Assembly: GCA_964568735.1 (NCBI GenBank)
Contig: CAZMRF010000016.1
Span: forward strand, 2,037-66,036
Direction of reading: 5' to 3'
Length of the DNA: 64,000 bases
Origin: an uncultured Acidobacteriota bacterium
Lineage (GTDB): Bacteria > Acidobacteriota > Polarisedimenticolia > JACPZX01
The notes beneath the pieces are model-generated. The model ran no database searches. It was not told where the DNA came from and saw only the letters and a list, made by a program, of their open reading frames with translations. Position numbers and translations under genes: made by a program. This document shows positions 29,691-64,000 of the stretch, in pieces. Within the stretch, counting starts at the first letter, position 1. Every line of letters begins with the position of its first letter.

Positions 29691-29942
29691 TCTCTGCGGC
29701 CCAGCCTATCGGCCATTTATCGCCGCGGAAACGCCATCGGCTTGACGATCGATGTGACATTCTGGCCCACACGCCTTCCGGCGACTCCTTCGTCGATTAT
29801 CTCCACAGCGCCAACGTGTGAGTCCGCAGCACATTGCGACGTGCCACCGCGCGGTGGCACGAATCTCGCTCCTATATGAGCAGACTCGCACGAACGCGAG
29901 TTCCCGGGAAGGACATTCGGCCCCGGCACGGAGGCTACGAAA

Positions 29943-42243: not shown

Positions 42244-42264
42244 TCCCGTATCGCCGCCTCTTCT

Positions 42265-43116: not shown

Positions 43117-43131
43117 CCGCGTCCCGCCGAG

Positions 43132-43824
43132 TCAGCTTCGCTCGAAAAGGTAGAAGTCCGGCAGGGTCCGTCGGTCCCTCTCATCCGATATCGAGAAAGG
43201 ATTCGGTACGTGCTCGGTCACACTCCAGCCTGGCAGCCGTTCACTGACGAAGTCTGTGAATCTACGATGGAGCACGTGCGGCGCCCGCCATCGAGGCTGC
43301 GTATTGGAGTCCGTTGAGTAAATCACGACGTAGCGAGTCGACGTCCGGAAGAGGCGTTCCATGTACTCACGGTAGGTACCATCCTCCACAAGGTGGTAAA
43401 TGACGTCGAGTGACACGGAAAGCTCCGCCCGCTCCTCCTGGTACTCACTGACAAGCTTGAACGCTTTGCGAGGGTCCTTGGAGAAGAGCCCTCTGCATTT
43501 CTCGACCGCCGCCGGACTGACATCGAATCCGAGGTAGATTGAGTACTGAATCTGTTCCAAGAGGTGACCGTCGCCACATCCGAACTCGATGGCCGATCCG
43601 ATCCTCCTTTCGCTGATGAACCGGTTCATTTGATCCGTCTTGAACCTGACCAGCTCTGGTGCGTAGGAGCCCGGCCCGGAGTCTCCCCCGCTCCGATAGT
43701 AGCCAATCCAGTATTTCTCGGATCCCGGGAAGGTGACCCGCCGGATCCCTCGAACGAGGCCACCGACGAGTGTCCCCAGAATAGGCAGACGGCGTGCCTT
43801 GTCCGGAATCCCGAGCAGGTTCAT
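43132..43824 (-). CDS. Class I SAM-dependent methyltransferase
   Basis: GGDSGPGSY, IEFGCGDG, SLDVIYHL, HRRFT. Confidence 0.85.
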   Translation of the reverse strand: MNLLGIPDKARRLPILGTLVGGLVRGIRRVTFPGSEKYWIGYYRSGGDSGPGSYAPELVRFKTDQMNRFISERRIGSAIEFGCGDGHLLEQIQYSIYLGFDVSPAAVEKCRGLFSKDPRKAFKLVSEYQEERAELSVSLDVIYHLVEDGTYREYMERLFRTSTRYVVIYSTDSNTQPRWRAPHVLHRRFTDFVSERLPGWSVTEHVPNPFSISDERDRRTLPDFYLFERS

Positions 43825-43861
43825 CGGGCCGCTTCTGATGGGTCCTGCCTCTCAGCGGTTC

Positions 43862-44104
43862 TCATGCCGCGAGCCGCTTCCTGACCGCTTCCACGACCTT
43901 CTTCCCGGTCGGCAGCACGCCCAGAAAGGCCATCGCGCCGGCGTCGATAAGGACTTCCCCGTCCACGAGGATCTTGAACTCGCCGTAGCGGCCGTGGACC
44001 ATCTCGACCTCGGTCTTCAGCTCCCGCCGGATTCGCGCCGCCACCCGGGCGGCATGCACCCCCGACAGTCAGTACACGCAGTATCGAACCTGAATCCTGG
44101 CCAT
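43862..44104 (-). CDS. Rdx-family (SelW/SelT/SelH-like) selenoprotein with CxxU motif
   Basis: GGGAGG RBS and ATG 44104: MARIQVRYCVY-TGA(44071-44069)-LSGVHAARVAARIRRELKTEVEMVHGRYGEFKILVDGEVL; SECIS-like hairpin follows; selC is in the same window. Confidence 0.85.
44037..44053 (-). promoter_or_regulatory. Candidate bacterial SECIS hairpin
   Basis: GCCGCC-CGGGT-GGCGGC starting 15 nt after the in-frame UGA; G-containing apical loop. Confidence 0.6.
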
Positions 44105-44137
44105 GGGTCCCTCCCTACAACGACTCGGGGGCGGCGC

Positions 44138-45163
44138 CTACCTCTCCGCGAGCATCGCCTCGAGCGAGGCGGCGACCACCTTGCGGTCCCGGGACTTCAC
44201 GTACCAGTCGATCGTGCGCTGGAGGCCCTCCTTGAACATGACCTGGGGCTCCCAGCCGAGGAGGCGCTTTGCGAGCGCGTTGTCGGCCACGCGGTTGTAG
44301 GGGCCCGTGGGCATGTCGGGGCGCGTCACGAGCTTCGCCTCCTTGCCCATGGAGCGCAGCACGTCGCGCGCGGCGTCGATGACGCGGATCCTCTCCATCG
44401 TGCCCAGGTTCACGGCGGTGGCGTCGTCGATGCGCTCGGCGGCCGCGATCGTCCCGCTGACGATGTCGGAGATGTAGGTCCAGTTGCGGATCTGCTCCCC
44501 GGTCCCCCAGACCTCGAAGGGGTTCTGCCCGACGAAGGCGCGCGCGATCATCGCGATGACGGCGTGGTTCTCGACGCCCCGGGGCCCGTAGACGGTGAAG
44601 TAGCGGCACGAGGCGGACTTCATTCCGAAGTCGCGGTGGTAGGCCTTGAGGGTCATTTCCCCCATGAGCTTCGCCCAGCCGTAGGTGTTGTCGGCGTCGA
44701 AGGGGGGGCCGACCATCTCCTCGGTCAGGTAGAGGATCTCGCCCGGATCCTCCTGGAGGTGGTTGGGGTAGACGCAGCCGGAAGAGGCGTAGACGACCTT
44801 CTCGACGCCCGCCGCCCGGCAGGCCTCAAGGAGGATCCCGTCCAGCATCAGGTTGCGGGCGCAGGCGGCCTGGTGGAGATCCACGTAGCCCCGTCCCCCG
44901 TGGTCCGCGGCGAGGTGGAAGACGAGCTTCTGCCCGCGGACGGCAGCCTCGGCTGCCTCCTGCCGCTTCAGGTCGGCCTTCATCAGCTCGACCCTGCCCG
45001 AGGCCAGGTGGGCTTGGAGATTTTCCAGCCGGCCGCTGCTGAGGTCGTCGGCAACCGTGACGCGGGCTCCCCGTTCGACGAGCACGTCCACGAGGTGCGA
45101 GCCGATGAACGAGGCGCCTCCGGTGACGAGCACCGGTAATCCTTTCCAATCCATCACGACCAT
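44138..45163 (-). CDS. NAD-dependent sugar epimerase/dehydratase (GDP-mannose 3,5-epimerase-like)
   Basis: VTGGASFIGSH, HLAADHGGRGY, ASSGCVYP, YGWAK. Confidence 0.9.
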   Translation of the reverse strand: MVVMDWKGLPVLVTGGASFIGSHLVDVLVERGARVTVADDLSSGRLENLQAHLASGRVELMKADLKRQEAAEAAVRGQKLVFHLAADHGGRGYVDLHQAACARNLMLDGILLEACRAAGVEKVVYASSGCVYPNHLQEDPGEILYLTEEMVGPPFDADNTYGWAKLMGEMTLKAYHRDFGMKSASCRYFTVYGPRGVENHAVIAMIARAFVGQNPFEVWGTGEQIRNWTYISDIVSGTIAAAERIDDATAVNLGTMERIRVIDAARDVLRSMGKEAKLVTRPDMPTGPYNRVADNALAKRLLGWEPQVMFKEGLQRTIDWYVKSRDRKVVAASLEAMLAER

Positions 45164-46126: not shown

Positions 46127-47575
46127 TCAGCATGCGCCCCTCCCCCCGAGGGCGGCCGGGAGGGTCTCGAGGAGGATCTGGAGGTCGAGGCGGAAGCTCC
46201 ACCCGCGGACGTAGAGGATGTCGTACCGGATCATCTCCTCGAAACGGACGTCGCTGCGCCCCCGCACCTGCCAGAGGCCCGTGATGCCCGGGCGCACCTT
46301 GGCGCGGTCCTGCGCCCAGGCGCGGTGCTCGCTGCTGAGGCCGTCCGGGTCGAGATCCTCGGCCGGCAGCGGCCTCGGGCCGACGAGGCTCATCTCGCCG
46401 ATGAGTACATTGACGAGCTGCGGCAGCTCGTCGAGGCTGAAGCGCCTCATGAAGCGGCCGATGGGGGTCACTCTCGGGTCGTCGCCGATCTTGAAGAGGT
46501 GCCCCTGCTTCTCGTTGCGCGCGGCAAGGGAGGCTCGCCGATCGCCGGCGTCGGCCACCATCGTGCGGAACTTGTAGAACTTGAAGTAGCGCCCGCCTCG
46601 GCCCACCCTCGGTGCGACGTAGAGCACCGGGCCCGGCGAGGTCAGTTTCACGAGGGCGGCCAGCGCGAGGAGGAAGGGGCTCCCCACGACGAGGAGCAGA
46701 CCCGCCGCCGCCAGATCGAAGATTCGCTTGGAGAGGTCCTGGAGCCTCGTGAACTCCACGCCCCTCAGCTCCACGAGGCGGACCGTGCCGACCTCGGTGA
46801 GAGCGATCCGCATGGAGCCCTCGTGGATGACGCCAGCGGTGTGGTTGACCGGCACTCCCATCCGCGTGCAGGTCGAGATGCATTCCCCCAGGTGCTCCGC
46901 GGAGATCTCGCTCTCGACGGCGATCACGCGGTCGATGGCGTGCCGGTTGATGATGATGCCGAGGTCGGCGAGGGAGCCGAGCACCGGGACGGGGTTGCCG
47001 AGGACGCCGGCTCCTGTCCCCGGCTCGGGCGTCACGACGCCGCAGATGCGCGCGGAGTCGGGGGCGGTCTTCTCGATCCTCCCGATGAGCGCGGCGGCGG
47101 CGGCGCCCGTGCCCACGATGAGGACGCGCTGGGGCCCGAGGGCACGCCAGCCTGCGGCCTTCAGGGCCAGGAAGAGAATCGCCCTGCCGGCGAGCATCAA
47201 CAAGACACCAAGGGTGCCGAGGAGGATGACGAAGGAGCGGGAGAGATCCGTCCCGAAGTCCCTCAAGAAAAAGGTCGCCACGATCGTCAGGACGAGGACG
47301 AGACCCATCGCCTCCACGACCTGCGTGATCGTGGTGAGCAGCCGGGGACCGCGGCGCGTCCGGTAGAGGCCTATCCAGGGGGCCGCGCCCACCCAGAGGA
47401 GAACGACGAGTCCAAGGGGCGGAATGAGGTAGTCGATCTGCGGAACGTCGATCTGGGCCTTGAAGAACTGGTTCAGGGAGACCCGCAGCATCTGCGCGGC
47501 CTGGTAGGCCGCGATGATGGCCGCGAGATCCACGAGCATCGTCAGGAGGCGGATGTCCCGCCGCCAGCCCCTCAT
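46127..47575 (-). CDS. Priming polyprenyl-phosphate sugar transferase (WcaJ/WbaP-like)
   Basis: KRIFD, KFRTM, DDPRVT, SLDELPQ, MSLVGPRP, RPGITGLWQV. Confidence 0.92.
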   Translation of the reverse strand: MRGWRRDIRLLTMLVDLAAIIAAYQAAQMLRVSLNQFFKAQIDVPQIDYLIPPLGLVVLLWVGAAPWIGLYRTRRGPRLLTTITQVVEAMGLVLVLTIVATFFLRDFGTDLSRSFVILLGTLGVLLMLAGRAILFLALKAAGWRALGPQRVLIVGTGAAAAALIGRIEKTAPDSARICGVVTPEPGTGAGVLGNPVPVLGSLADLGIIINRHAIDRVIAVESEISAEHLGECISTCTRMGVPVNHTAGVIHEGSMRIALTEVGTVRLVELRGVEFTRLQDLSKRIFDLAAAGLLLVVGSPFLLALAALVKLTSPGPVLYVAPRVGRGGRYFKFYKFRTMVADAGDRRASLAARNEKQGHLFKIGDDPRVTPIGRFMRRFSLDELPQLVNVLIGEMSLVGPRPLPAEDLDPDGLSSEHRAWAQDRAKVRPGITGLWQVRGRSDVRFEEMIRYDILYVRGWSFRLDLQILLETLPAALGGRGAC

Positions 47576-49719
47576 CCCTTCACCTCGCCCTTCGCCGCGA
47601 CGAGCGCCTGCTGCAGTGCCGCATCGGCGGAGTTCATCTCTGCCGCCCTCTCGATGACCGCGAGCGCCTCCCGCCGCGCATCATCGTCCAGCAGCGGCCA
47701 GGCCCGGATGTAGAAGCGGGCCACCTTGGCGTGGGTCGACGCGCTCATCGGGTTGAGCCTCAGGGCCGTCCTGAGATCCTGCGCGCCCGCCTGGACACAG
47801 GCGCTCTCGTCGCCGCCCCGCAACTCACGAGCCGCGCAGAGAGCGGCCGCGAGATGGCCCCGGTAGAGATGCCCCTGGGGGTAGGTGGGCGCGTGGCGGA
47901 TCCCATTTTCCTGACGCTGCATCGCCTCACCCAGGAGAGTGCCCACCTTCCGCGCTCTCGCCTCGTCGAGGGCACCTCCGGTCGCGAGCTGTTCGCTCAG
48001 GGCCTGGAGGTCCGCGACGGCCACCCTTCCGAGCGCCGCCGCTTCCGTGAAGAGCCGCTCCGAGTTGTCCCCGTCCAGAGTGCGGGCCACCCAGGCCCGG
48101 GTGCGGCATCGCATGGAGCTGTCCGGCTTCCCGTCGAGCATCGCACGCTCCACGACATGGCTTTCCGAGAGCGCGGCCACGGTGGGAACTATCGCGGAGG
48201 CCGCCACAAGGAGCATCCCCGCCGCCGGAGCGAGGCTCCTCGGAATCCACGATGACGGCACCGCCACCCGTGCGCGGGCGGGAACGGCCGCGGCTCCGGC
48301 CTGCCGGCGCCATGCGATGAGGATCCCGCAGGCGGCCGCGAAGGTCACGGCGTTCGCGGGGATGGCAAGGTCGAAATCCACCAGCGAGTGAAGTCCTATC
48401 GCGAGGACGGCCGCGAGGGCGGCCGGGCCGAGCGGGCCGAAGGCGTCCCGCTCGAGGCGCGTTCGGATCAGGGAGCGCGTCACGAGAAGGACTCCGGCCC
48501 CGAGGACCACCAGGCCCGTCCAGCCCGTCTCCGCGAGGGCCTCGAGGTAGTCGTTGTGCGCGTGGGCGAGGAAGACCCCCGCTCCCGCAGCACGGAAGCC
48601 GGGGAAGACGTACTGGAAGCTGCCTAGCCCCGTGCCCGTCAGCGGGAAGGCCGCGGCCATCACGAGCGCCTGCTGCCACATCTCCCAGCGTCCCACCTGG
48701 CCGGTCATCGAGTCGGGCGCCACCCTGAAGTCGTCCAGGATGATGGAGCCGCGGCTCTGGCTGAAGAAGAGCAGCAGCGTCACGGCCACGGCGAGCGCCG
48801 CCGCGACGGCGAAGGCTCTTCTCTTCCGGCTGACGGCGGCCGCCATCCCCGCCGCGAGAAGCCCCGCCATGGCACAGGCCATCCCCGCCCTCGATCGCGA
48901 CGACCCGAGGGCCGTGGCCATCAGGACTGCCACGATCAGGACCATCGCCGCGGAGAAGATCTTCCGCCCCGGCAGCGCGGCGACGCGCTGGAGAAGGGGG
49001 ATCTGCTCCGATGGGTGCAGCCTCGGGAAGAGGCCCGCCGCCATCGCGAGCGCCAAGGGCAGGCACATGGCCAGGTAGCCGGCATAGTGGTTCTTGTTGA
49101 TGAAGGTGCCGGTCGCCATCTCGGCGTAGTACTGCTTGGCGTAGCCGAAGATGTGCTGGCGCCCGCTGAGGTGCTCGGCGAGGCCGTAGACGGCCTGGAA
49201 GCCGCCCCCGGCCACGAGCGCCCAGGCGAGTGCGCGCCGCGGCCCGCCCTGCATGGCGAGATCCAGCGCCATGAGCGCCACGAGGGAGCAGGCCACGAAG
49301 CGGGAGAGGGACTGGCGCGTGGCCCAGGTGTGGAGCGAGAGGGGCCGCCAGCGACCCGCCTCGGCGGGGGCAGGCTCCGGGGCCCCGCCGGGCTCATTCA
49401 TGCGTCCGGCCGCCCCCGGCTCCAGCTCGGCTCTGAGCGATGCGGCCGCCGGGGAGAGGGAAGCACCGAGCGCGGGCGGGAGCGGGACGAGCTGGGCTGC
49501 CACGACGGCCGCGAAGGCGGCCGTCGCGAGGAGCGCCGGCTCACGCCAGGGAAGGGCCGGGAGCCCCCTGCGGCAGCGTCCGACGATCCAGATGACGGCG
49601 AGGATGGCCGAGGCGACGACGAGCGCGGCACTCCATGAGGGCTCGACGGCGCCGAAAGGAAGCGGCGCGAGCAGGAGCAGGGCGATCACGCCGCCGAGCA
49701 GGAGCCTCTCTGTCGTCAT
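47572..49719 (-). CDS. O-antigen ligase-family protein with C-terminal TPR-like region
   Basis: GTFINKNHYAGYL, SRSRAG, GTGLGSF, HAHNDYLE, HSLVDF; TPR-like tail. Confidence 0.85.
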   Translation of the reverse strand: MTTERLLLGGVIALLLLAPLPFGAVEPSWSAALVVASAILAVIWIVGRCRRGLPALPWREPALLATAAFAAVVAAQLVPLPPALGASLSPAAASLRAELEPGAAGRMNEPGGAPEPAPAEAGRWRPLSLHTWATRQSLSRFVACSLVALMALDLAMQGGPRRALAWALVAGGGFQAVYGLAEHLSGRQHIFGYAKQYYAEMATGTFINKNHYAGYLAMCLPLALAMAAGLFPRLHPSEQIPLLQRVAALPGRKIFSAAMVLIVAVLMATALGSSRSRAGMACAMAGLLAAGMAAAVSRKRRAFAVAAALAVAVTLLLFFSQSRGSIILDDFRVAPDSMTGQVGRWEMWQQALVMAAAFPLTGTGLGSFQYVFPGFRAAGAGVFLAHAHNDYLEALAETGWTGLVVLGAGVLLVTRSLIRTRLERDAFGPLGPAALAAVLAIGLHSLVDFDLAIPANAVTFAAACGILIAWRRQAGAAAVPARARVAVPSSWIPRSLAPAAGMLLVAASAIVPTVAALSESHVVERAMLDGKPDSSMRCRTRAWVARTLDGDNSERLFTEAAALGRVAVADLQALSEQLATGGALDEARARKVGTLLGEAMQRQENGIRHAPTYPQGHLYRGHLAAALCAARELRGGDESACVQAGAQDLRTALRLNPMSASTHAKVARFYIRAWPLLDDDARREALAVIERAAEMNSADAALQQALVAAKGEVKG

Positions 49720-49727
49720 CCCCCACC

Positions 49728-51953
49728 TCAGGCACGCGGATCGGTGCCCGTCCCGGCGTCACTGGAGGCGCTCGAGGCGCTGCGCTCCAGCGCCGCGAGC
49801 TCCGCCTGCTCCCTGGCCGTCTCCGTGTAGCTTCCGTAGTAGCGGCTCTCCGGCTCGGCCTTGTTCAGGACGGCGCCCGTGAGCTGGGCCTTCACCTGCC
49901 TCAGCTTCCCGACGGCGTGCTCCAGCGCGTCCCTCCCTGTCACTCCGGCCCACGCCACGACGATGACCGACTCCATCCGCGCGGCGATGATGCAGGCGTC
50001 CGCCACGACGAGGACCGGCGGGGAGTCGAAGATGATGTGGTCGTAGCCGGCCGCCAGGAGCCGGCTCTCGATCTCGGCGAAGCGGTTCGAGTTCAGGAGA
50101 TCAGCCGGGTTGGGCGGCGGCGGCCCGCTGGCGAGGATGTCCAGCCCCTCCACGCGCGTGGGCTGGATGGCCAGGCCGTCGGTCCCGGACCCGCCGAGAG
50201 CCGTGGAGAGGCCCGTTCCGTTCGAGAGCCCGAAGATCGCATGGAGGCGCGGCTTTCTCATGTCGGCGTCCACGAGCAGGACGCGGCGCCCCGCCTGCGC
50301 CAGGGAGACGGCCAGGTTCCCGCTGATGGCCGTCTTGCCCTCGCTGGGCTGCGAGCTGGTCACGAGGATCATCCGCGGCGGCCCGCCGGGCCTCGAGACG
50401 AGGAGAGTGGTCCGCATCTCGCGAACCGCCTCGGAGATCTTCGAGGCGGGATTCTCGTGGGCGATGAGCCCCACGGTGGCCGTCGCGCGCGCCTCCTCGG
50501 TGCCGTTGGATCTCACGAGGCGCAGGCGCGGGCCGTCGGGGCGCCACATGGGGATCACGCCGAGGACCGGAAGGCCGGTCAGGGCATGGACCTCTTCGCC
50601 GCTCTTGACGGACTTGTCCACGTACTCGAAGAAGAGCGCGAGCCCGATCCCCAGCGCGAGGCCGCTCGCGAAGCTCAGGATGAAGTTCATCCCGCTCCGG
50701 GGGCTGCTGGCCCGGACCGGGATCTCGGCCCGATCCACGATGCGCACGTTGCTGCTCGTGACCTCGTTCATCCCCGCCGTCGTGCGGGCCTCACCCTGGC
50801 GCCTGAGGATCGCCTCGAGCATCTGCCGGCGGTTCTCGATCTCGCTCTTGAGCGTGCGGTACTCGATTTCCTTGAGGCTGAGCGCCTGCGACAGCCCCTT
50901 GAGCCCCTCCAGCGCCTTCTCGAGCCCGGCCTCCTCCTTCTTCGATGCCCGGTAGTCGGCCTCGGCGGCGCCGAGGATCTGCCCGTAGACCGCGCGGTTC
51001 TCCCTCTCGATTCTCTGATCGATCTCCCCCAGCTCCCCCTTCACGCGCGAGAGCTCGGGCCACGCGGGCCCGTACTTCTCGGACAGCTCCGCGTGGCGGC
51101 GGGCCAGCTCGATCCGCTTGGCAGCGAGGTCGCCGATGAGGCGGCTCTCCCTCACTTCCTTCACGTCCTGAGGCGCCGATTCCTCGAGGGAGGCGAACCT
51201 GGCTTCCTTCTCGATGCGGACGCCCCGCGCCGCGGTGAGGGACTTGCTGAGGTCCGTGAGGTTCTGCAGCGTGATGTCCTGGGTCTCGTTGATCGGGACG
51301 ATGCCGTGCTCGGTGGCGTAGGCCTGGAGGCGCTTCTCCATCTCCTGGATCTCGCCCTGGAGGGAGGTCACCTGCTCGCCCAGCGACGTGGATGCCTGCT
51401 CCGTCGTGTTGTACTCGGCCTGCGTGTTGAAGGCGATGTAGGTCTCCGCGACCTGGTTCGCGGCCTTCGCGGAGAGCACCCGATCCCGGGAGGAGAACGA
51501 GACGTTGACGAGCCGGCTCTTGCTCACAGGCGAGACATTCAGGCGCTCCAGGAAGCGGTTGATGCGGGCCCCCTCGGCCACTTCCTCGGGGGTCAGCCCC
51601 GTATCGACGCGGCCGGGGGCCTCGACGCGGAACTCCGGGTGATGCGGCAGATCGAGGGCGCGGATCACCTCACGGGCCACGCGGCGGCTGGTGATGAGGC
51701 CGTACTGGGTCTCGTAGAAGCCGAAGAACTGATCGCCGCCGTCCGTCGCCACGCGCTGGAAGGGCAGCACGTTGGGGTTCTGCCGCTCGATCTGGAGCGT
51801 CGTCGTCGCCGTGTAGACCGGCTCCATCAGCAGGGAGCGGAGCATCACGGTCGTCACCGTGACGGCCAGGCAGGTGTAGACGACCCACCGGCGCTTGACG
51901 AGAATGCGCCAGTAGTCCAGCAGGTGAGCTTCCCTGGGCTCCGCTTCCCTCAT
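49728..51953 (-). CDS. wzc: Polysaccharide co-polymerase / BY tyrosine autokinase
   Basis: HLLDYWRILVKRRW, Walker A SSQPSEGKT, LLVDADMRKP, IFDSPP, C-terminal YYGSY. Confidence 0.92.
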   Translation of the reverse strand: MREAEPREAHLLDYWRILVKRRWVVYTCLAVTVTTVMLRSLLMEPVYTATTTLQIERQNPNVLPFQRVATDGGDQFFGFYETQYGLITSRRVAREVIRALDLPHHPEFRVEAPGRVDTGLTPEEVAEGARINRFLERLNVSPVSKSRLVNVSFSSRDRVLSAKAANQVAETYIAFNTQAEYNTTEQASTSLGEQVTSLQGEIQEMEKRLQAYATEHGIVPINETQDITLQNLTDLSKSLTAARGVRIEKEARFASLEESAPQDVKEVRESRLIGDLAAKRIELARRHAELSEKYGPAWPELSRVKGELGEIDQRIERENRAVYGQILGAAEADYRASKKEEAGLEKALEGLKGLSQALSLKEIEYRTLKSEIENRRQMLEAILRRQGEARTTAGMNEVTSSNVRIVDRAEIPVRASSPRSGMNFILSFASGLALGIGLALFFEYVDKSVKSGEEVHALTGLPVLGVIPMWRPDGPRLRLVRSNGTEEARATATVGLIAHENPASKISEAVREMRTTLLVSRPGGPPRMILVTSSQPSEGKTAISGNLAVSLAQAGRRVLLVDADMRKPRLHAIFGLSNGTGLSTALGGSGTDGLAIQPTRVEGLDILASGPPPPNPADLLNSNRFAEIESRLLAAGYDHIIFDSPPVLVVADACIIAARMESVIVVAWAGVTGRDALEHAVGKLRQVKAQLTGAVLNKAEPESRYYGSYTETAREQAELAALERSASSASSDAGTGTDPRA

Positions 51954-51961
51954 CCCATCTC

Positions 51962-53179
51962 CTAGAAGAAGGTCTCGGCGACCACGACCACGTCGCCGTC
52001 GGCAAGGACCGGATCCAGCTCCTCTCCGCTGCGGATCCTGAGCAGGTTCACCGTGAAGCTCGTCTTGGTCCCCGAAGGCCCGCGGCGGAGGATCAGGACC
52101 TTCTTGAGGTTCGCCCGCTCCGTCGCGCCTCCGGTCTTCGCGATGGCCTGCATCACGGTGATCTCCCGGCTGGCCGCCTGCTCGATCCGCCCGGGGTCGC
52201 GGACGGCGCCGTCCACGTAGATCTGGAGGATCCGGTCGGGGGGGACGCTGACGACGTCTCCCGGCTCGATGGGGAGGTTCAGCGAGGGATCCCGGCTCGT
52301 CATTAGAGAATCGATGGGGACGGGGATCCGATCGTGGCCCCCTCCGGGCGATGCGCGGATCACGAAGAGCTCGGCCCCGCTTTCCTGCGTGAGGCCGCCG
52401 GCCTGCGCGATCACCTGGAGCAGGGTGCGGGGGCCCAGCATCTCGTAGACGCCGGGCTTGCCGACCGCCCCGAGGACGGAGACCTTCTTGCTGCCATGCT
52501 CCTGCACGAAGACCGAGACGTGGGGATCCCTGACGTACGTGCCGTCGAGCATCTCGCGGATCTTCAGCTCCAGCTCGCGCGGCGTGAGGCCGGCCGCGTG
52601 GATCTCGCCCACGAGGGGAAGAGAGACCGCGCCGGACTCACCGACCCTCACCGTGCGATTCAGATCGGGGACCTCGAAGACGGTGATCTCGAGGAGATCC
52701 TCCGTGCCCAGGGGGCGGGCCGCTCCGGGCTCCGCATCCCCTCCCTCCTCGCGTGGAACGAACCTGAGCTGGAGCCCTTCCGGCACGGAGCGGATCATGG
52801 CCGCGGAGGGCCGCTCCAGCGTGAAATCGACCCTCGCCCCCTCGGCCGCCGCGCCGAGCGCAATCGCGCGAACGGGGCCGGAGGGCTGGGGGAGATCCTC
52901 GGGGCCTACCTCGACGAGCACTCCCGCCAGCTCGACGCTCACGACGCGTCCACCCGCCCCCTCCAGGATCCGGTGAGAGGGATTCCCGCGGCAGGCGAGA
53001 AGCCAGCTCTCGCCACCGGGCGCCGAGACGACGGCCGTCAGGGCGGGGCTCTCCGCTCCGGGCTCCGCGCACCAGGCGGGCGCCTCCGCGAGCACGAAGA
53101 CGAGCACGAGAATGAGCACACCTCGGAGCGCCGCCTCCGCGCGAAGGAACGCGCCGGCAGCCTGCCCGCGCGCTCTCAC
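51962..53179 (-). CDS. wza: Polysaccharide export (OPX) protein with N-terminal AMIN-like domain and SLBB repeats
   Basis: LGTEDLLEITVF, SLPLVGEIHAAGLT, VLGAVGKPG, AIAKTGG; ends VVVVAETFF. Confidence 0.85.
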   Translation of the reverse strand: MRARGQAAGAFLRAEAALRGVLILVLVFVLAEAPAWCAEPGAESPALTAVVSAPGGESWLLACRGNPSHRILEGAGGRVVSVELAGVLVEVGPEDLPQPSGPVRAIALGAAAEGARVDFTLERPSAAMIRSVPEGLQLRFVPREEGGDAEPGAARPLGTEDLLEITVFEVPDLNRTVRVGESGAVSLPLVGEIHAAGLTPRELELKIREMLDGTYVRDPHVSVFVQEHGSKKVSVLGAVGKPGVYEMLGPRTLLQVIAQAGGLTQESGAELFVIRASPGGGHDRIPVPIDSLMTSRDPSLNLPIEPGDVVSVPPDRILQIYVDGAVRDPGRIEQAASREITVMQAIAKTGGATERANLKKVLILRRGPSGTKTSFTVNLLRIRSGEELDPVLADGDVVVVAETFF

Positions 53180-53207
53180 GGGCCCGGCCTGCTCCGCGGA
53201 CCGGCCG

Positions 53208-54527
53208 CTACAGGAGCAGCGACGTGCCGAAGGTGATGAGATCGCGATCTCTGTCGAGCGAATCATCCGTGGAATCCCGCCTCTGGCGCTGGACGCTCCC
53301 CGTCAACGCGAAGTCGTCGCCCAGCCTGTAGTAGAGCTTCATCTCCCAGGTCTTCAGTCGATCGTCCCTCGTGCGTGCTTCCGTCCTCTTCGAGTCGTCG
53401 GCATCGATCAGCTCCTCCGGATAGTGGTAGAGCGTCCGCCCGTACCGCAGCTCGGCGCTCAGCTTCCGCGAGAAGAACCTCTCGAAGCCCGCGGCCCACG
53501 TGGTCTGGATGGCATAGAGGTTGTTCTCGAGCATGGAGAAGGGCAGGGCCCGCTCCGCCTCGAGCTTCAGCCGCGAGGCATTCCCGAGGCGCGCGGCGAC
53601 GGCGCCCTCTCCCGCGAAGCCCTTGTAGTCCGCCGGGATGGGAGAGTTCGGGTCGCCGGGATCGAGCCTCCCCCCGGGCGCGTTCAGGCTCACGACTCCG
53701 GCCTTCACCTCGCCCGAGATCGGTGCGGAGGCGTCGAGGCGCAGCCCCGGCAGGACGGTGATCGACCGGGTGTCGCGGACCTGCTCCGGGCTGCGGAAGT
53801 TCACGTCGTCGAGGATCGTCTCGAGGGTGGCCGTCGTCCGGGGACGAACCCGCATCTCTCCCGTCAGCTCGACCGTGCGGTTGTCCCGGTCGAGGCGCTC
53901 CTTGATGTCGTCGATCCCCTCCCCATCCACGTAGCGGATCGAGCCCGCGCGGAGCGACGCGTGGCCGCCGAGCCGGTCCCGCAGCGGGATGCGCGCCATG
54001 GCGGTGAGCTCGTTGACGCTGCGCCGGACGCGCGTGTCGATCTCGTTGGAGGGCCTCTCACGATCGGAGCGGAAGCGCTCTTCCAGCGAGAGCACGGAGG
54101 GGCCCATCAACAGAATGCCCCTCGCTCTCGAATCGCTGTTCCAGTGATCGAGCTGGCTGTTGTTCTTGAAGGCGACGTAGCTGAGCTCCTGGCCGAAAGC
54201 CACTCCGCCGCGATGGCCCGTGCGAAGGAGCGCGCGCAGCCCCGGGACGGCGGTAGCCGTGAAATCCCCTTCTCCCTCCCTGGAGTCGAAGAAGACGTTG
54301 TCGTCGTACCCGACGTCCCTGAGGTTGAAATAGGGGCCGAGCCAGAGCGGGCCCACCTTCCGCAGCGCATCGATCGAGAGATCGGGATCCGGCGGGACCT
54401 CGGGATCCGGGGCCGCCAGCGCGAGAGAGCACGCGCACAGGCCGGAGGCGAGGAGGAAGAGGGCCCGGGCCGGGGCTGCCGGGCCTCTTCCGATACTGGC
54501 TTCAGGGACCGCCCGGGCTTCCGTCAT
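53208..54527 (-). CDS. Outer-membrane beta-barrel associated with polysaccharide export
   Basis: Signal peptide; GYDDNVF, alternating beta-strands, C-terminal ITFGTSLLL; directly upstream of wza. Confidence 0.75.
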   Translation of the reverse strand: MTEARAVPEASIGRGPAAPARALFLLASGLCACSLALAAPDPEVPPDPDLSIDALRKVGPLWLGPYFNLRDVGYDDNVFFDSREGEGDFTATAVPGLRALLRTGHRGGVAFGQELSYVAFKNNSQLDHWNSDSRARGILLMGPSVLSLEERFRSDRERPSNEIDTRVRRSVNELTAMARIPLRDRLGGHASLRAGSIRYVDGEGIDDIKERLDRDNRTVELTGEMRVRPRTTATLETILDDVNFRSPEQVRDTRSITVLPGLRLDASAPISGEVKAGVVSLNAPGGRLDPGDPNSPIPADYKGFAGEGAVAARLGNASRLKLEAERALPFSMLENNLYAIQTTWAAGFERFFSRKLSAELRYGRTLYHYPEELIDADDSKRTEARTRDDRLKTWEMKLYYRLGDDFALTGSVQRQRRDSTDDSLDRDRDLITFGTSLLL

Positions 54528-55110
54528 CGTCCTCGTTGTTGTCGCCGTCAGCCGCATCGATGAGGGCGCCTGTCGCGATGACGAAAGCGAGCCCGGCGGC
54601 CAGCACGACGAGCGGGTTGCTCCATCCGAGGCCGGGTTGGCCCTGGCCCTTGGTCTTGGGCCGCTTCGGCGTCTGCTTGGCCTCACCCGTGCCGGCACCT
54701 TCGGGTCCGGCCTCGGCAAGCGACGCAGGATCGAAGCCGGGCCGGTCCTCGATCCTGAAGGAGTAGCTCTGGGGCGTGACCGCGGTGACAAGAAGTGAGC
54801 GCGCTCCAAGGTAGATCCCCTTCTCCGTCTGGACGGCCACCTCGTACTCGCCCGCGGGAAGCCCCACGAGGCGATAGGTGCCGTCCTCCGTCGTGGGCAC
54901 GCTCGCATGCTCGCGAGCGTCGTCCAGGCTGCGAACCATGACCACGGCTCCGGTCACGGGCCCGCCGGCCCCCGCGATCACCTTCCCTTCCAGCGACGCC
55001 GGGCCCTCTGTGTCAGCCGCGAGCGGTGGCAACGTCCCGAGCGGAAGCGCCGCGATCAGCAGCGCCGCCGCAAAAACTCTCATCCTTCCCTGCATGCGCC
55101 TCTCCTCCAC
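54502..55110 (-). CDS. Secreted carboxypeptidase-regulatory-like (beta-sandwich) domain protein with C-terminal TM and acidic tail
   Basis: Signal peptide; LEGKV..GAVVMV..TTEDGTYRLVGLPAGEYEV; TM followed by EDDDGSPGGP*. Confidence 0.8.
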   Translation of the reverse strand: MEERRMQGRMRVFAAALLIAALPLGTLPPLAADTEGPASLEGKVIAGAGGPVTGAVVMVRSLDDAREHASVPTTEDGTYRLVGLPAGEYEVAVQTEKGIYLGARSLLVTAVTPQSYSFRIEDRPGFDPASLAEAGPEGAGTGEAKQTPKRPKTKGQGQPGLGWSNPLVVLAAGLAFVIATGALIDAADGDNNEDDDGSPGGP

Positions 55111-55196
55111 GTGGGCCTGCGTCCCGGCGAGCGCCCGCAGGCGGGACCGAGCTTGCGTATGAGCCCCGCGCCGGCGGGGCGGGATGAGTTCATGCT

Positions 55197-55715
55197 TCAG
55201 GGCAGTTTCGGGCTCGCGTCTTCGTCCTTCTCGAACAACTGGTCCGCCGCGAACGCAGCCACCAGGATGCCGCCGATGGTCGGGATCAGGATGGCGGCCT
55301 TTCCGCCGCTGCGCGCCGTTCCGGAGCCGGAAGAGCCTGCGGCCTCCGAGGCGGCCGGGGTCATGATCAAGGTGATAGAAGAGGGCTGCCCCCCCGCGAT
55401 GGTGACCCTGCTGGGCAGCATGAACTCGCCGCCACCGGTGCTCACGACGATCGTGTACTCACCGTCCGGCACTTCCTGGATCTCGTACCTTCCCGTGGCA
55501 TCGGTCTGCCGGCTCGAGAATTCCTGGCCGGAGGTGCGATCCCTGAGCCGGACCGTGACGTTGCGCGCCGGGCTGATGCCATCCTGGTGCAGGACGGTTC
55601 CGGTGAGATCCGTGCCGGAATCGGCCGCGATCGGAGAGGTGACAGAAGCGGGGAAGACCATCACCGCCGCAAGGGCGAGCACGCACGGTAATCTTCCCCG
55701 TAGACCGACAATCAT
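55197..55715 (-). CDS. Secreted carboxypeptidase-regulatory-like domain protein with C-terminal TM and acidic tail
   Basis: Signal peptide; LTGTV..TDATGRYEIQEVPDGEYTI; TM followed by EKDEDASPKLP*; upstream TTGACC-16-TAGAAT (55796-55769). Confidence 0.8.
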   Translation of the reverse strand: MIVGLRGRLPCVLALAAVMVFPASVTSPIAADSGTDLTGTVLHQDGISPARNVTVRLRDRTSGQEFSSRQTDATGRYEIQEVPDGEYTIVVSTGGGEFMLPSRVTIAGGQPSSITLIMTPAASEAAGSSGSGTARSGGKAAILIPTIGGILVAAFAADQLFEKDEDASPKLP

Positions 55716-55851
55716 GGCAGCTCCATCTGGACTGGCCTGAACTGAAGAGGTGGATCGCAGGCCGGGCTATTCTATCGGGCCGCCAGCCACGGTCAAGCAG
55801 ACTGCACCACTTTCACGGACTGCCTCTGCACCCGCCCCCGCTGGTCTGCGG

Positions 55852-56418
55852 CTAGTGGCCTCGGCCGCCCTTGGCCCCCGGCTCTCCCGGGGGCCCTGAG
55901 CCGTTTCCCTGGCCGTTGCCCTTGTCCTTCCCGGGCGGATCAGATGCGCCTGGACCCGCTCCCGAACCCCCCTTCCCATCCCCTGGATGAGAGCCGCCGC
56001 CCTGTCCGGGCGGATCTCCTGTGCGACCCGGTGGGCCGTCCCCCCCATGGCCGGGCGGATCGAGATCGCCCTGCCCTGGCGGGTCATCGCCACCGTTGCC
56101 GGGAGGAGGGCCACCTCCATGCCCCGGAGGGTTCGGGCCTCCCCGGTGGTCGGGGGGCAGGTCGGGAGGACGGCCGCGCCCGCGCCCAGGACGGCTCGGG
56201 CTCGCATCGTCGTCGGTCTCGGCGATGGCCGTTGCCGCCAGATCGCTGCTGAGAATCACGCTCAGCAGATGGAGGGCACCGGAGCCTGCCGCCTCTGGCG
56301 GAAGCTGAGCTGCCGGCTCGGCACCGATGACGGGTGCCCTGGGAGCGACCAGCAGAACCAACACGGCACACCACAAGGGAGCCGCAGACCCCATGAACGC
56401 GATTCGCTTCAAGATCAC
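55852..56418 (-). CDS. Secreted Gly/Pro-rich (PPG-repeat) low-complexity protein
   Basis: GGGAGGAG RBS, GTG start, signal peptide; ETDDDASPSRP followed by eight PPG/HPG-type units; upstream TTGACG-16-TAGTAT (56491-56464). Confidence 0.7.
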   Translation of the reverse strand: MILKRIAFMGSAAPLWCAVLVLLVAPRAPVIGAEPAAQLPPEAAGSGALHLLSVILSSDLAATAIAETDDDASPSRPGRGRGRPPDLPPDHRGGPNPPGHGGGPPPGNGGDDPPGQGDLDPPGHGGDGPPGRTGDPPGQGGGSHPGDGKGGSGAGPGASDPPGKDKGNGQGNGSGPPGEPGAKGGRGH

Positions 56419-56520
56419 TCCCTCCCGACGATCAGGTTCACTGAAACCGGCGATGACTGCCGAATACTACGGCCCTCGTCATCGCCGTCAAGGAGAATAC
56501 TGAAGGGGAGTGTGCCGGGG

Positions 56521-56904
56521 TCAGGGATCTTCAAGGATGGAATTCTTCGCCGCGGAGCCGACCAGGATGGCACCCGCCACGATCATGAGCACGACGCCAA
56601 CCCTCGAGCGGAAGAAGGACTTCCTCGTCCCGGGGGGAGTTTCGCGGCGGGGCTCGGGCGGGATGGCCCCTTCGTTCACGGCGAGAAGGCGTGCCGCAAG
56701 GGCCTGCCTGAGCCCCCCTGACTCGGGAGGGCACGGGAGTTGTCTCGCCGGGGCCGGGACCTGGATGGACGAGGCGGCTTCCTGGCCGGCCGGAGGGAGC
56801 GCCTCCGCGGCAGGGCTGGCCCCGGGGGCCACTCCCCCCCAGACCGGCGTCACCCCCCCGGCCGCGGCGAGCGCAAGGATCGCGGCGAGTAGCCTCGAGC
56901 CCAC
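56521..56904 (-). CDS. Small secreted protein with C-terminal TM
   Basis: Signal peptide, Ala/Pro-rich linker, KSFFRSRVGVVLMIVAGAILVGSAAKNSILEDP*. Confidence 0.7.
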   Translation of the reverse strand: MGSRLLAAILALAAAGGVTPVWGGVAPGASPAAEALPPAGQEAASSIQVPAPARQLPCPPESGGLRQALAARLLAVNEGAIPPEPRRETPPGTRKSFFRSRVGVVLMIVAGAILVGSAAKNSILEDP

Positions 56905-57281: not shown

Positions 57282-57893
57282 TCACTCCTGGGCTGTGCTG
57301 AAATCGAGCAGGCGCGCGATCTTGCTCCTGAACTCCTCGATGTTCAGGGGTTTTTTCATGTAATCGGAGGCACCGCAGCGGACGATCTCCTCCTGGGCGT
57401 TGTTGTCCATGAAGCCGGAAATCGCGAGGATCTTGGTCCCCGAGGTCGCCGGGTTGGCGCGTATTCTGCGGCAAGCCTCGAAGCCGTCCATCCGGGGCAT
57501 CTTCAGGTCGAGCACGAGCAGGTCGGGCTTGGAGTGACCGGCCTTCAGGAGCGCCTCGTAGCCGTCGCCCGCCTCCTCCACCTCGAGACCCATCTCCATG
57601 GTCCTGAGGACCTCGGCGAGCATCTCGCGCACGGAGGAGTCGTCGTCCACGAGGAGGACCCTTCGCGCGGTTCTCTCGAAGAACTCGGGGTAGATCGGCA
57701 TCTGGTGCCGGACCAGGAACTCCTTGAAGTCCTCGCTGTCGACCCGGAAGTGACCGCCGGGCGTTCGGAAAGCCTTCAGGCGACCATTGCGGATCCACTT
57801 CTTGACGGCATTCGTGGAAACGTCGCAGTAGCGTGCGACCTCGCCTGTCGTCAGGAGCTTCGAATGGCTGGTAGGTGCTTTGGCCTTCGCCAC
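57282..57893 (-). CDS. Response regulator with N-terminal excisionase/MerR-like HTH (HTH_17) and C-terminal REC
   Basis: LLTTGEVARYCDVSTNAVKKWIRNGRLKAFRTPGGHFRV; VLLVDDD, PDLLVLDLKMPRMDG, KP. Confidence 0.9.
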   Translation of the reverse strand: MAKAKAPTSHSKLLTTGEVARYCDVSTNAVKKWIRNGRLKAFRTPGGHFRVDSEDFKEFLVRHQMPIYPEFFERTARRVLLVDDDSSVREMLAEVLRTMEMGLEVEEAGDGYEALLKAGHSKPDLLVLDLKMPRMDGFEACRRIRANPATSGTKILAISGFMDNNAQEEIVRCGASDYMKKPLNIEEFRSKIARLLDFSTAQE

Positions 57894-60190: not shown

Positions 60191-60197
60191 GGTGGGC

Positions 60198-61754: not shown

Positions 61755-61779
61755 GCTCCCGGTCCGGGGAAGGCCGAGC

Positions 61780-63996: not shown

Positions 63997-64000
63997 GGAA

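Follow-up and report, generated by a model that had tools for sequence, protein, structure and literature searches.

Small membrane proteins with a conserved C-terminal Ser-Pro tail, encoded beside an exopolysaccharide export block in Acidobacteriota

Small exported proteins encoded next to an exopolysaccharide export block in an uncultured acidobacterium represent a previously undescribed family, restricted to a few lineages, of small bitopic membrane proteins that share one architecture and end in a conserved Ser-Pro motif. The window, meaning the whole stretch of DNA analyzed here, comprises 64,000 nt from an uncultured member of the Acidobacteriota (Polarisedimenticolia; JACPZX01; GCA_964568735.1, CAZMRF010000016.1:2,037-66,036, forward strand). 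The tail has no Pfam or NCBIfam model, and text searches of the literature found no paper on it. In our preferred reading, which stands roughly an even chance of being correct, the tail proteins serve the export machine as accessory subunits, with the tail as a docking or phospho-regulatory motif in the cytoplasm.

Two proteins in the window are clear carriers of the motif, while two neighbors belong to the family in part. The first carrier, p202 (202 amino acids; 54502 to 55110, minus strand; PF13620, 41.6 bits; a public gene call starts at 55083 and gives 193 amino acids), consists of a signal peptide, a CarboxypepD_reg beta-sandwich, a Lys/Arg-rich linker, a hydrophobic helix at about residues 161 to 187, an acidic run and a terminal GSPGGP, and its AF2 model has a confident sandwich (residues 29 to 111), a helix (157 to 178) and a disordered tail. 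The second, p172 (172 amino acids; 55197 to 55715, minus strand; PF13620, 44 bits; tail model, E = 1.3e-6), has a signal peptide, a CarboxypepD_reg domain and a helix. ORF translation and a regular-expression scan place the C-terminal motifs, both on the minus strand, at 54505 to 54534 (EDDDGSPGGP, p202) and 55200 to 55232 (EKDEDASPKLP, p172). An ORF of 188 amino acids (55852 to 56418, minus strand) has a signal peptide, a weak hydrophobic segment and ETDDDASPSRP (56188 to 56220) followed by a Pro/Gly-rich extension of about 110 residues; it is a doubtful member because it lacks the beta-sandwich and any family match, retrieved only itself in a search for homologues of near-equal length and scores a weak 8.3 bits against the tail model. 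The 127-amino-acid protein (56521 to 56904, minus strand) has a signal peptide and shares the pre-helix motif (KSFFRSRVG) and the helix with the family, and ends in KNSILEDP without the Ser-Pro tail. The coordinates and sequences that the initial annotation had given for the motif in three signal-peptide proteins were all verified on the ORF translations, and its description of a fourth protein with a hydrophobic helix and an ILEDP end also held. The general layout of the family is a cleavable signal peptide, a transthyretin-like (CarboxypepD_reg) sandwich predicted to be periplasmic, a flexible Lys/Pro-rich linker and a C-terminal module of about 45 residues, in which a basic patch, the aromatic motif [FW][FW][KR][ST][PG]xG, a Gly/Ala-rich helix, an acidic run and a terminal [AV]-[ST]-P-x-x-[PK] follow one another.

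A chance origin of the motif can be excluded, since the only matches in the genome that follow a hydrophobic segment lie in three adjacent genes: the expression [DE]{2,5}[AG]SP..P matched 11 times in 42,002 six-frame ORFs (4.9-Mb genome), and the 3 matches with a preceding hydrophobic segment all came from the window. The motif, whose conservation in orthologues the initial annotation had named as one test, is kept both there and in distant relatives. Orthologues of p202 (51 to 87% identity) all end in [DG][GA]SP[GS]GP, and their linkers vary. A profile of the last 50 residues retrieved 103 cluster representatives (E ≤ 1e-3) among 1.84 billion proteins, matching at the very C terminus in all but about 2 of them; of the 101 representatives that were kept, 93 have [ST]P within 22 residues of the C terminus and 8 have Ser or Thr without Pro, in a set that, like every set gathered with the tail profile, is biased toward Ser-Pro. 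Exactly 4 residues follow the Ser in 44 of these 93, and a fixed distance from the C terminus is typical of a recognized linear motif. The Ser is the sole near-invariant column in an alignment of the last 50 residues of 32 sequences, and across 62 full-length sequences no column is invariant except those of the Ser, the Pro and a single sandwich Gly. Two comparisons are free of the bias, that of the orthologues and a search with the N-domain only, which gave 38 matches, 33 of them in ORFs matched by the tail model; the other 5 have a helix and an acidic, Ser/Thr-bearing or Ser/Thr-rich tail, with Ser-Pro in only 2.

The tail family is confined to the acidobacterial class of the window, the Aminicenantes and a few Nitrospirota. 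The N-domain is CarboxypepD_reg in 75 of 80 representatives, and the exceptions include a few FecR proteins: FecR-domain proteins encoded beside wza-wzc in Nitrospirota carry the same tail, as does one other acidobacterial protein. Relatives have 1 to 5 tail copies per genome, and the genome of the window has 3 to 4 carriers, all of them window genes. So few copies, nearly always on one N-domain, indicate a dedicated protein family and not a genome-wide sorting signal, and the earlier idea of a general sorting motif is thus not borne out.

The link of the motif to a polysaccharide export block, proposed from the window, agrees with the gene neighborhoods in relatives. Downstream of the small genes and co-oriented with them on the minus strand, model matches confirmed the families of an outer membrane beta-barrel protein (53208 to 54908; BBP2_2, with a weak match to TIGR03016/EpsL), a truncated Wza-like OPX protein (51962 to 53266; Poly_export and SLBB) that covers the 380-position Wza model only at 88 to 267, a Wzc-type polysaccharide co-polymerase and BY tyrosine kinase (49728 to 51953), a Wzy_C (O-antigen ligase family) protein with C-terminal TPR (47572 to 49719; PF04932, 75 bits) and a priming polyprenyl glycosylphosphotransferase (46127 to 47575; TIGR03025, 376 bits). 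The signal-like segment of the barrel ORF is at residues 144 to 160, and the likely start is at 54557 or 54527; the reported overlap of the last small gene with the barrel gene holds by residue count, because these ATGs fall inside the last p202 codons. In relatives, tail genes are found at one or both ends of the barrel-wza-wzc-Wzy_C block or directly before wzc, and 30 of 62 tail matches lie within 10 kb of a Wzy_C match (35 within 20 kb, in 21 of 28 genomes).

The gene immediately upstream of the small genes encodes a response regulator with HTH_17 and receiver domains (57282 to 57893, minus strand), which has a 68% identical orthologue beside the tail genes in each of two order-level relatives, G005 and G006. 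It is preceded by signaling and scaffold genes (58046 to 63999, minus strand; same order in L198) for a TPR-PEGA-PDZ protein (58046 to 60412), a TPR/YfiO/NHL protein (60198 to 61820) and a Hanks Ser/Thr kinase (61780 to 63999). The order STK-TPR-PDZ-RR-tail-tail is common to the window and the order-level relative G005, and G006 keeps PDZ-RR-tail-tail. The Hanks kinase adjoins tail genes only in the order of the window, and the Aminicenantes tail-gene neighborhoods have no conserved kinase. Ten of the tail loci examined have no export gene nearby. Of 10 tail genes situated away from export blocks, 5 abut a gene for a receiver-domain protein (hybrid kinases, REC-GGDEF, PAS plus REC); such genes are very common, so the adjacency may be incidental.

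From sequence and gene context we infer the side of the membrane on which the tail lies, any modification of it and its partner. The tail proteins would be dedicated parts of a Wzx/Wzy-type exopolysaccharide export module made up of the beta-barrel porin, the truncated Wza, Wzc and the Wzy_C enzyme with its periplasmic TPR. The helix would anchor the protein in the inner membrane, the CarboxypepD_reg sandwich would reach toward the Wza/barrel translocon, and the tail of 10 to 20 residues would act as a short linear motif at the cytoplasmic face, its invariant Ser/Thr being a docking or phosphorylation site. In this way the tail could couple the export machine to cytoplasmic regulators, for example the kinase domain of Wzc, or the response regulator and Hanks kinase of the locus. 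A precedent, going by the text available, is RmpD: this protein is small and bitopic, has a charged C-terminal tail in the cytoplasm, binds Wzc and determines chain length (PMC10294653).

The initial annotation favored a Ser glycosylation site for the Wzy_C enzyme. In that case the tail would be extracytoplasmic, the export-block Wzy_C would move an undecaprenyl-diphosphate-linked repeat unit or polymer onto the Ser/Thr, and the membrane-tethered glycoprotein would anchor or prime the polymer. We regard this as unlikely, but it is a live rival because the charges flanking the helix also allow a tail on the outside. With an N-terminal signal peptide and a single helix, the p202/p172 family is predicted to have a cytoplasmic tail, where a periplasmic Wzy_C ligase could not reach it, and the Lys/Arg residues directly after the helix and at the C terminus in Aminicenantes members fit that placement. 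However, net charge averages +2.3 over the 15 residues that precede the helix and -2.6 on its far side (both signs in 63 of 87 representatives). This is the reverse of the positive-inside rule, which the neighboring Wzy_C protein obeys loop by loop and which would place the tail outside. Some tails are rich in Ser, Thr and Pro and resemble extracytoplasmic O-glycosylated linkers, the Ser/Thr is the best-conserved position and is retained where the Pro is lost, and the candidate site has Ala/Val at -1 and Pro at +1 in a disordered tail. It lies about 10 to 14 residues past the end of the helix and hence close to the membrane surface, which is where Wzy_C enzymes act, as established from the active site of WaaL. 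The occurrence of the tail on FecR proteins also favors glycosylation. PglL modifies AniA within a flexible C-terminal AASAP repeat, where nearby Pro raises efficiency, and O-OTase genes often adjoin their targets in the same orientation (PMC3643930, available in part).

The enzyme itself gives a divided answer. In the 47572 to 49719 protein, a 13th helix and a C-terminal TPR region of 196 amino acids accompany 12 WaaL-like helices. The protein keeps the conserved Arg/His, matches WaaL 7tpg_B (E = 4.9e-15) as well as TPR entries, and scores 29.8 bits against TIGR03097, below the cutoff; its catalytic loop and TPR are both predicted to be periplasmic. Tail genes directly flank Wzy_C or Wzy_C-plus-TPR genes. 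The separate Wzy candidate named earlier is confirmed as a second Wzy_C protein (34944 to 36596, plus strand; PF04932, 39 bits) that lies among glycosyltransferase genes here and in Aminicenantes; since this pair of Wzy_C genes per locus is kept, the export-block enzyme would be free for a role other than polymerase, although it could itself be the polymerase. Against glycosylation, neither the enzyme nor the rest of the window has a PglL_A motif, but PilO also lacks it (PMC3643930, in the text available). Of the 80 Wzy_C loci in other lineages that are closest to this one, 61 lack a tail protein in the flanks retrieved, which implies that the enzyme family has a tail-independent function; only 3 of 8 loci picked in relatives by Wzy_C similarity have a tail protein within 20 kb; Wzy_C homologues occur in 38 of 41 relatives' genomes and tails in 28; and the 10 tail loci away from export genes likewise count against it. 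What stands of the earlier interpretation is thus the conserved Ser, the linkage to the block and the spare Wzy_C, while the predicted cytoplasmic tail, the missing PglL_A and the tail-free loci speak against it.

It is improbable that the module is only a family-specific membrane anchor, in which Ser-Pro caps the helix or tail without a specific partner or modification and the acidic run serves to tune insertion or to keep anionic polymer or lipid away. The module does travel almost solely with one N-domain, no dedicated enzyme is conserved beside it, the 127-amino-acid paralogue keeps the helix and not the tail, and there are variants without Pro or with Ser followed by other residues. However, Ser/Thr and Pro are invariant or almost so, outranking every helix position, among sequences only about 20 to 25% identical elsewhere, and their fixed distance to the C terminus also argues against a mere anchor. 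Very improbable is a cleavable C-terminal sorting signal of reversed polarity, in which a membrane enzyme would recognize and remove the helix and tail, as with PEP-CTERM or LPXTG signals, and the protein would pass to the cell surface or the polymer: the tripartite layout with its aromatic/basic motif just before the helix, the strictly C-terminal position, the second N-domain type (FecR) and the setting in EPS loci, as for exosortase systems, would fit, but carriers number only 1 to 5 per genome, the neighborhoods show no conserved gene for an exosortase, a sortase, a rhomboid-like or any other protease, which leaves the suggested processing or anchoring tag without a candidate enzyme, and, in line with the reported lack of exosortase and sortase genes in the window, the genome has no sortase or PEP-CTERM match and only one exosortase-family gene, XrtH, on another contig with its own three IPTLxxWG-CTERM proteins.

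Among known systems, TfpO modifies the C-terminal Ser of pilin. The window differs from PglL, TfpO (PilO) and PglS in that its enzyme lacks PglL_A, lies inside a Wza/Wzc export block and carries or neighbors a periplasmic TPR, the encoded neighbors are not pilins, the Ser is predicted to be cytoplasmic, and most close homologues of the enzyme have no tail-protein neighbors. The likeness lies in a Wzy_C-family enzyme encoded beside and co-oriented with small exported proteins and in a candidate acceptor Ser in a flexible C-terminal Ala/Pro context (PMC3643930, in part). With PEP-CTERM/exosortase and LPXTG/sortase systems the family shares a C-terminal module resembling a tripartite signal with a hydrophobic helix, and with the former the EPS loci. 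All known signals of these types place the motif ahead of the helix and a basic tail behind it; in the tail family, the motif follows the helix, the tail is acidic, there is no cognate enzyme, and the few carriers per genome nearly all belong to one family. Several genes of the locus have weak, sub-threshold matches to XrtA/PEP-CTERM-associated models.

RmpD of Klebsiella likewise belongs to a Wzc-dependent pathway and is a small bitopic inner membrane protein whose short, charged C-terminal tail acts via Wzc, but according to the available text it is 49 to 58 amino acids long, has its helix at the N terminus, lacks a periplasmic domain and ends in a basic tail (PMC10294653). The two show no sequence relation, and Wzc binding by the tail proteins is only putative. 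In the window, the barrel, the shortened Wza and the Wzc match the arrangement of the class-3 OPX translocon WzcB-WzaB-WzpB of Myxococcus xanthus (10.1101/2022.02.11.480155; PMC12819527; PMC9601211, each available in part), for which the accessible parts of two sources do not list any small CarboxypepD_reg membrane protein among the components (10.1101/2022.02.11.480155; PMC12819527). The tail proteins, present at 2 of 80 Wzc-anchored loci across phyla, are a lineage-specific addition to this class-3 OPX-like set.

Four small genes head a single co-oriented series on the minus strand of the window, which runs from 56904 to 46127 according to the sequence and family searches. The first encodes a 127-aa protein (56521-56904) that has the pre-helix motif and the helix and ends in ILEDP, and the second is a 188-aa ORF (55852-56418) that carries the Ser-Pro motif and has no sandwich domain, a weak helix and no detectable homologue. 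The other two, p172 (172 aa, 55197-55715) and p202 (202 aa, 54502-55110), have a CarboxypepD_reg domain and end in EKDEDASPKLP and EDDDGSPGGP, and these two of the four are full members of the family described here. They are followed by a BBP2_2 beta-barrel (53208-54908), a Wza-like protein (51962-53266), Wzc (49728-51953), a Wzy_C protein with a C-terminal TPR region (47572-49719), a TIGR03025 priming transferase (46127-47575), a WecG/TagA transferase and an epimerase. Four further genes on this strand, upstream of the series, encode an HTH_17-receiver response regulator, a TPR-PEGA-PDZ protein, a TPR/YfiO/NHL protein and a Hanks Ser/Thr kinase with a PEGA-like match. Re-reading the sequence showed the motif coordinates of the initial annotation to be exact, and the reported overlap of the barrel gene with the last small gene was confirmed, with likely barrel starts at 54557 or 54527 inside the 3' end of the p202 gene. 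The separate Wzy candidate was also found, as a second Wzy_C protein (34944-36596) among the glycosyltransferases. RpoB assigns the genome to Acidobacteriota, its best matches being acidobacterial MAGs with about 65% identity.

Some features of the region are recorded here as observations in their own right. The tail of the 188-aa ORF (55852-56207) is rich in Pro and Gly over a long stretch in which DPPG/PPGxGG units recur, and it gave no homologue in a near-length search; in DNA of such high GC content, the extension may be young or spurious. About 185 residues precede the Poly_export match of the Wza-like ORF, and this part has a hydrophobic segment at residues 39-68 and matches no family. 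Between the plus-strand glycosyltransferase operon and the minus-strand export operon lies a stretch of about 3 kb (41032-44138) in which no ORF passes the codon-position filter and where the G+C content is lower (0.625 in the 42-44 kb bin, compared to about 0.68-0.70 around it). The polysaccharide region falls into two halves, and between them are a SpoIIE-type (PP2C) phosphatase and an IclR/MarR-like regulator (27631-28860 and 29880-30644).

The tail is rare within the genome and conserved between genomes. Scanning the 42,002 six-frame ORFs of the whole 4.9-Mb genome for the strict motif pattern gave 11 occurrences, and a hydrophobic segment precedes the motif only in the three neighbouring genes of the window. 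When the scan was relaxed to any C-terminal helix with a net-acidic tail, it gave no further Ser-Pro tails elsewhere in the genome; it listed p172 and missed p202, probably because the long stop-to-stop frame of the latter failed the GC3 filter. Five p202 orthologues with 51-87% identity all end in [DG][GA]SP[GS]GP, so that the motif is indeed conserved in orthologues, and in these five the linker ahead of the helix has been rewritten while the end of the tail has been kept. With an improved profile, matches at E<=1e-3 were found in 28 of 41 genomes (40 relatives and the genome of the window), with 1-5 matches each; the count includes one unpublished genome, without which it is 27 of 40. In a phylum-wide sample of 201 genomes, 18 had a tail match at E<=1e-4, 12 of them in the class of the window (its own genome included) and 6 elsewhere. 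A search of 1.84 billion cluster representatives with the 50-position profile returned 103 proteins at E<=1e-3, mostly of 170-280 aa, and the match was at the extreme C terminus in all but about two obvious false hits (one of 3,591 aa and one with repeated internal matches). A recognisable domain after the tail, which would have fixed the topology, was found in none of the family members examined, the long ORFs being false hits. The carriers under named records are all uncultured MAGs, and a search with a narrower alignment of the tail subfamily gave 13 loci, all from uncultured Acidobacteriota MAGs.

The tail is one part of a module with a fixed order: a Lys/Arg-rich patch, an aromatic motif (of the types FWRSPxG, WFRTGKG, WDNPLT and PPFFLAPLG), a Gly/Ala-rich helix of about 17-24 residues, an Asp/Glu run and a Ser/Thr-Pro end. 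Among 93 sequences with Ser/Thr-Pro, the residue before Pro is Ser (82) or Thr (11) and is preceded by Ala (45) or Val (21); position -4 is acidic in 67, positions -2 and -3 are often Pro or Glu, +2 is Ser (38) or Phe (28), +4 is Pro (42), and exactly four residues separate the Ser from the protein end in 44. Eight of 101 representatives lack Ser/Thr-Pro, and all eight still have a Ser/Thr at the aligned place. The Ser is the sole near-invariant column in an alignment of 32 modules, and in 62 full-length sequences only one Gly of the sandwich, the Ser and the Pro do not vary. The profile used to collect these sets favours Ser-Pro; the checks free of this bias are the p202 orthologues and a search limited to the N-domain. 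In the latter, 33 of 38 matches lay in ORFs found by the tail model, and the remaining five also have a helix and an acidic Ser/Thr-bearing or Ser/Thr-rich end, with Ser-Pro in only two.

The module is largely tied to one type of N-domain. PF13620 (CarboxypepD_reg) scores 44.0 bits in p172 and 41.6 bits in p202, over a cut-off of 32.3, and the tail matches no model of Pfam or NCBIfam. An AlphaFold2 model of p202 shows the beta-sandwich (29-111) with confidence and the helix (157-178) with low confidence, while the tail is disordered, and fold searches returned only generic transthyretin/CnaB-like sandwiches. The nearest protein-atlas clusters, from Acidobacteriota and Binatota, are named only 'hypothetical' or 'carboxypeptidase regulatory-like domain-containing'. 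FecR-domain exceptions occur in Nitrospirota (L034 3107-3850 and L071 3171-3959), ending in ASPSTP and ASPSIP after the same helix and acidic run, and both genes lie directly upstream of wza-wzc. An acidobacterial protein (L299 4999-6138), which also has this helix and acidic run and ends in EEASPSRP, has an N-region that was judged FecR-like by eye.

We mapped the genomic context by tblastn with the proteins of the window against 38 fetched stretches of related genomes. Three gene orders recur: tail, barrel, wza, wzc and Wzy_C, often with a second tail gene after; one or more tail genes, wzc and Wzy_C; and Hanks kinase, TPR, TPR-PEGA-PDZ, response regulator, tail and tail, which is seen in the window and one relative and, from the PDZ gene onward, in another. 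The Aminicenantes loci start with glycosyltransferases and a small Wzy_C protein, a priming transferase and an FAD-type oxidoreductase, continue with barrel, wza, wzc, a CpsB phosphatase and a Wzy_C protein of about 480 aa without TPR, and end with a separate 577-aa TPR protein and a tail protein before unrelated genes. A genome of another acidobacterial lineage has three tail genes in tandem, flanked by wzc and Wzy_C (L301 6625-8280, on contig C2 of G194).

The initial annotation raised the question whether motif and ligase genes occur together, and for their physical position this held. The tail gene lies <10 kb from a Wzy_C gene in 30 of 62 tail matches and <20 kb in 35 of 62 (21 of the 28 genomes), for which we estimate a chance expectation of about 1-2%, given 2-4 Wzy_C matches per genome of 2-6 Mb. 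Among 80 loci fetched around the closest Wzy_C homologues, 61 had no tail gene in the flanks covered. The other 19, of which 16 had served as seeds for the model and 3 had not been seen before, have tail proteins (helix, acidic run and [AV][ST]Pxx[KP]) and come mostly from Aminicenantes, with two from Nitrospirota. Stretches chosen by Wzy_C similarity alone had a tail gene in 3 of 8 cases within the 20 kb fetched, and loci anchored on Wzc in many phyla had one in 2 of 80. Genome-level co-occurrence was uninformative, with Wzy_C homologues in 38 of 41 relatives. Given how rare tail genes are at Wzc- and Wzy_C-anchored loci, the tail family is an addition made in certain lineages to a wzc-Wzy_C module that is itself widespread. 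Ten tail loci had no export gene in the fetched stretch, and in five of them (L203 8600-9727, L210 10105-11229, L096 4791-9668, L100 2554-4503 and L099 4067-5334) the tail gene neighbours a receiver-domain signalling protein; these are two hybrid histidine kinases, two REC-GGDEF cyclases (convergent) and one PAS and REC pair.

The possible functions of the tail depend on the side of the membrane. The N termini of the tail proteins are ordinary signal peptides, and with one further helix the default topology places the sandwich outside and the tail inside. The Wzy_C enzyme has 12 WaaL-like helices with an Arg/His loop (323-396) predicted outside, and its cytoplasmic loop 470-494 (five Lys/Arg and zero Asp/Glu) is followed by a 13th helix, so that the TPR region (520-715) is predicted to be periplasmic. 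The split TPR protein of Aminicenantes begins with a signal or anchor sequence, in agreement with this. A cytoplasmic tail would thus contact neither the catalytic loop nor the TPR region. The charges flanking the tail helix are reversed, with a mean of +2.3 before and -2.6 after it and both signs in 63 of 87 sequences, while the positive-inside rule is obeyed at every short loop of the Wzy_C protein of the same genome. Aminicenantes members have Lys/Arg directly after the helix and at the very end, which eases the conflict. A crude sum of insertion energies with the Hessa scale did not discriminate (median +1.1 kcal/mol for tail helices, +2.0 and +2.3 for the Wzc helices, and similar values for most Wzy_C helices). 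On balance, we favour a cytoplasmic tail, as roughly twice as likely as an outside one.

The reading that we prefer, and to which we give about even chances, is that the family is a bitopic accessory subunit of a class-3 OPX/Wzc/Wzy_C machine with a docking or phosphorylation motif in its cytoplasmic tail. The periplasmic sandwich would reach on its flexible linker toward the Wza/barrel translocon, and the tail would act as a short linear motif with the invariant Ser/Thr as the docking or phosphorylation site. The tail genes that overlap or abut the barrel gene suggest co-production. Hanks kinases prefer acidic residues upstream of the phosphosite, and a Hanks kinase gene is in the same strand block as the tail genes. 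The conserved kinase and regulator neighbours in the taxonomic order to which the window belongs, and the receiver-domain neighbours outside export blocks, fit a regulatory role without being proof of it. A precedent is RmpD, a small bitopic protein with a charged cytoplasmic tail that acts on Wzc (PMC10294653).

The main rival is the idea of the initial annotation that the Wzy_C enzyme O-glycosylates the Ser or ligates polymer to it, which we regard as unlikely. The enzyme matches PF04932 with 75 bits, and R277, R344 and H386/H388 vary little or not at all among 50 homologues; from position only, these would correspond to R215, R288 and H338 of WaaL. The context of the tail is like that of PglL sites, which in AniA lie in C-terminal flexible AASAP repeats where Pro raises efficiency, and O-OTase genes often adjoin their target genes (PMC3643930). 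Two Wzy_C genes per EPS locus, one with the glycosyltransferase set and one in the export block, are common to the window and Aminicenantes (L038 644-1831), and this conserved pair, together with the flank charges that favour an outside tail, also speaks for glycosylation. Against it are the default cytoplasmic topology, the many Wzy_C loci without tail genes and the missing PglL_A motif: PF15864 has no match in the enzyme, the best score in the genome being 14.6 bits on another contig with a cut-off of 25, although PilO likewise lacks this motif (PMC3643930). Complex prediction between the Wzy_C-TPR alignment and the 50-residue tail module gave no verdict (scores of 0.02 and 0.01) and speaks neither for nor against binding. 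[quoted passage not shown] Compared with a WaaL reaction, the place of lipid A would be taken by the helix, that of the anionic inner core by the acidic run and that of the acceptor sugar by the Ser hydroxyl. If true, such a ligase acceptor signal would be categorically new and would yield a polysaccharide anchored to protein (a bacterial proteoglycan), with a role in priming, anchoring or metering the polymer.

That the module serves only as a membrane anchor is improbable, since this is hard to square with a Ser-Pro conserved above every position of the helix. Two ligand-type roles were also considered and set aside: an S-P-F end would suit a class I PDZ ligand but is present in only a minority of tails, and a TPR carboxylate clamp for the acidic C terminus is weakened by a TPR region that is predicted to be periplasmic and is separate from the enzyme in Aminicenantes.

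A general sorting signal, as had also been suggested, is contradicted by the distribution, as in this genome only the genes of the window carry the tail, relatives have 1-5 copies and CarboxypepD_reg is the N-domain of 75 of 80 full-length representatives. The PEP-CTERM signal has its PEP motif before the helix and a basic cluster after it, unlike the tail of this family with its average net charge of -2.6, and TIGR02595 had no match in the genome at E<=1. Sortase PF04203 had no match in the genome, which is 96% complete, and no protease, sortase-like protein or other candidate processing enzyme recurs near the tail genes in the neighbourhoods examined. The only exosortase-family gene is XrtH (TIGR04177, 104 bits) on contig C24 (L001 1468-2085, minus strand), followed by a gene for a 471-aa protein with TPR-family matches. 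Three proteins, with matches on contigs C3 and C22 and two of them adjacent on C3, have IPTLxxWG-CTERM signals over the cut-off, and XrtH was ruled out for the tails because it is on another contig and has these three proteins of its own. Lacking both enzyme and substrate set, a cleavable sorting signal is very improbable.

Wzx/Wzy-dependent export is well studied in Proteobacteria and Myxococcus, and Acidobacteriota is a dominant phylum of soil and sediment with known polymer producers. Exact-term searches of open-access text found no published description of the tail family, and a mention in a synteny table is possible. The family is compact and easily recognised by its invariant Ser-Pro, the fixed distance to the C terminus and its position at the edges of export blocks. 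As a regulator, it would be a small bitopic protein through which cytoplasmic Ser/Thr or Tyr kinases signal to a class-3 OPX machine, and as an acceptor, a protein substrate for an O-antigen-ligase-type enzyme within an EPS locus; either outcome would be something new. The machinery around it is of known types. The Wza-like protein matches only positions 88-267 of the 380 of its model, the BBP2_2 barrel scores 38 bits, and Wzc scores 250 bits with TIGR01005, below the equivalog cut-off, and 164 bits with TIGR01007, above the cut-off. The locus has the marks of class-3 OPX, a Wza without the outer-membrane helix, an adjoining beta-barrel and Wzc, in an order kept in relatives. Periplasmic TPR scaffolds that join inner-membrane enzymes to barrels are described for synthase-dependent systems (PMC12220298). 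The combination of barrel, truncated Wza and Wzc is the known class-3 OPX translocon, as presented in two reports (bioRxiv 10.1101/2022.02.11.480155; PMC12819527), and the new part is the tail-bearing family itself, which we class as an accessory membrane protein of a Wzc-dependent pathway.
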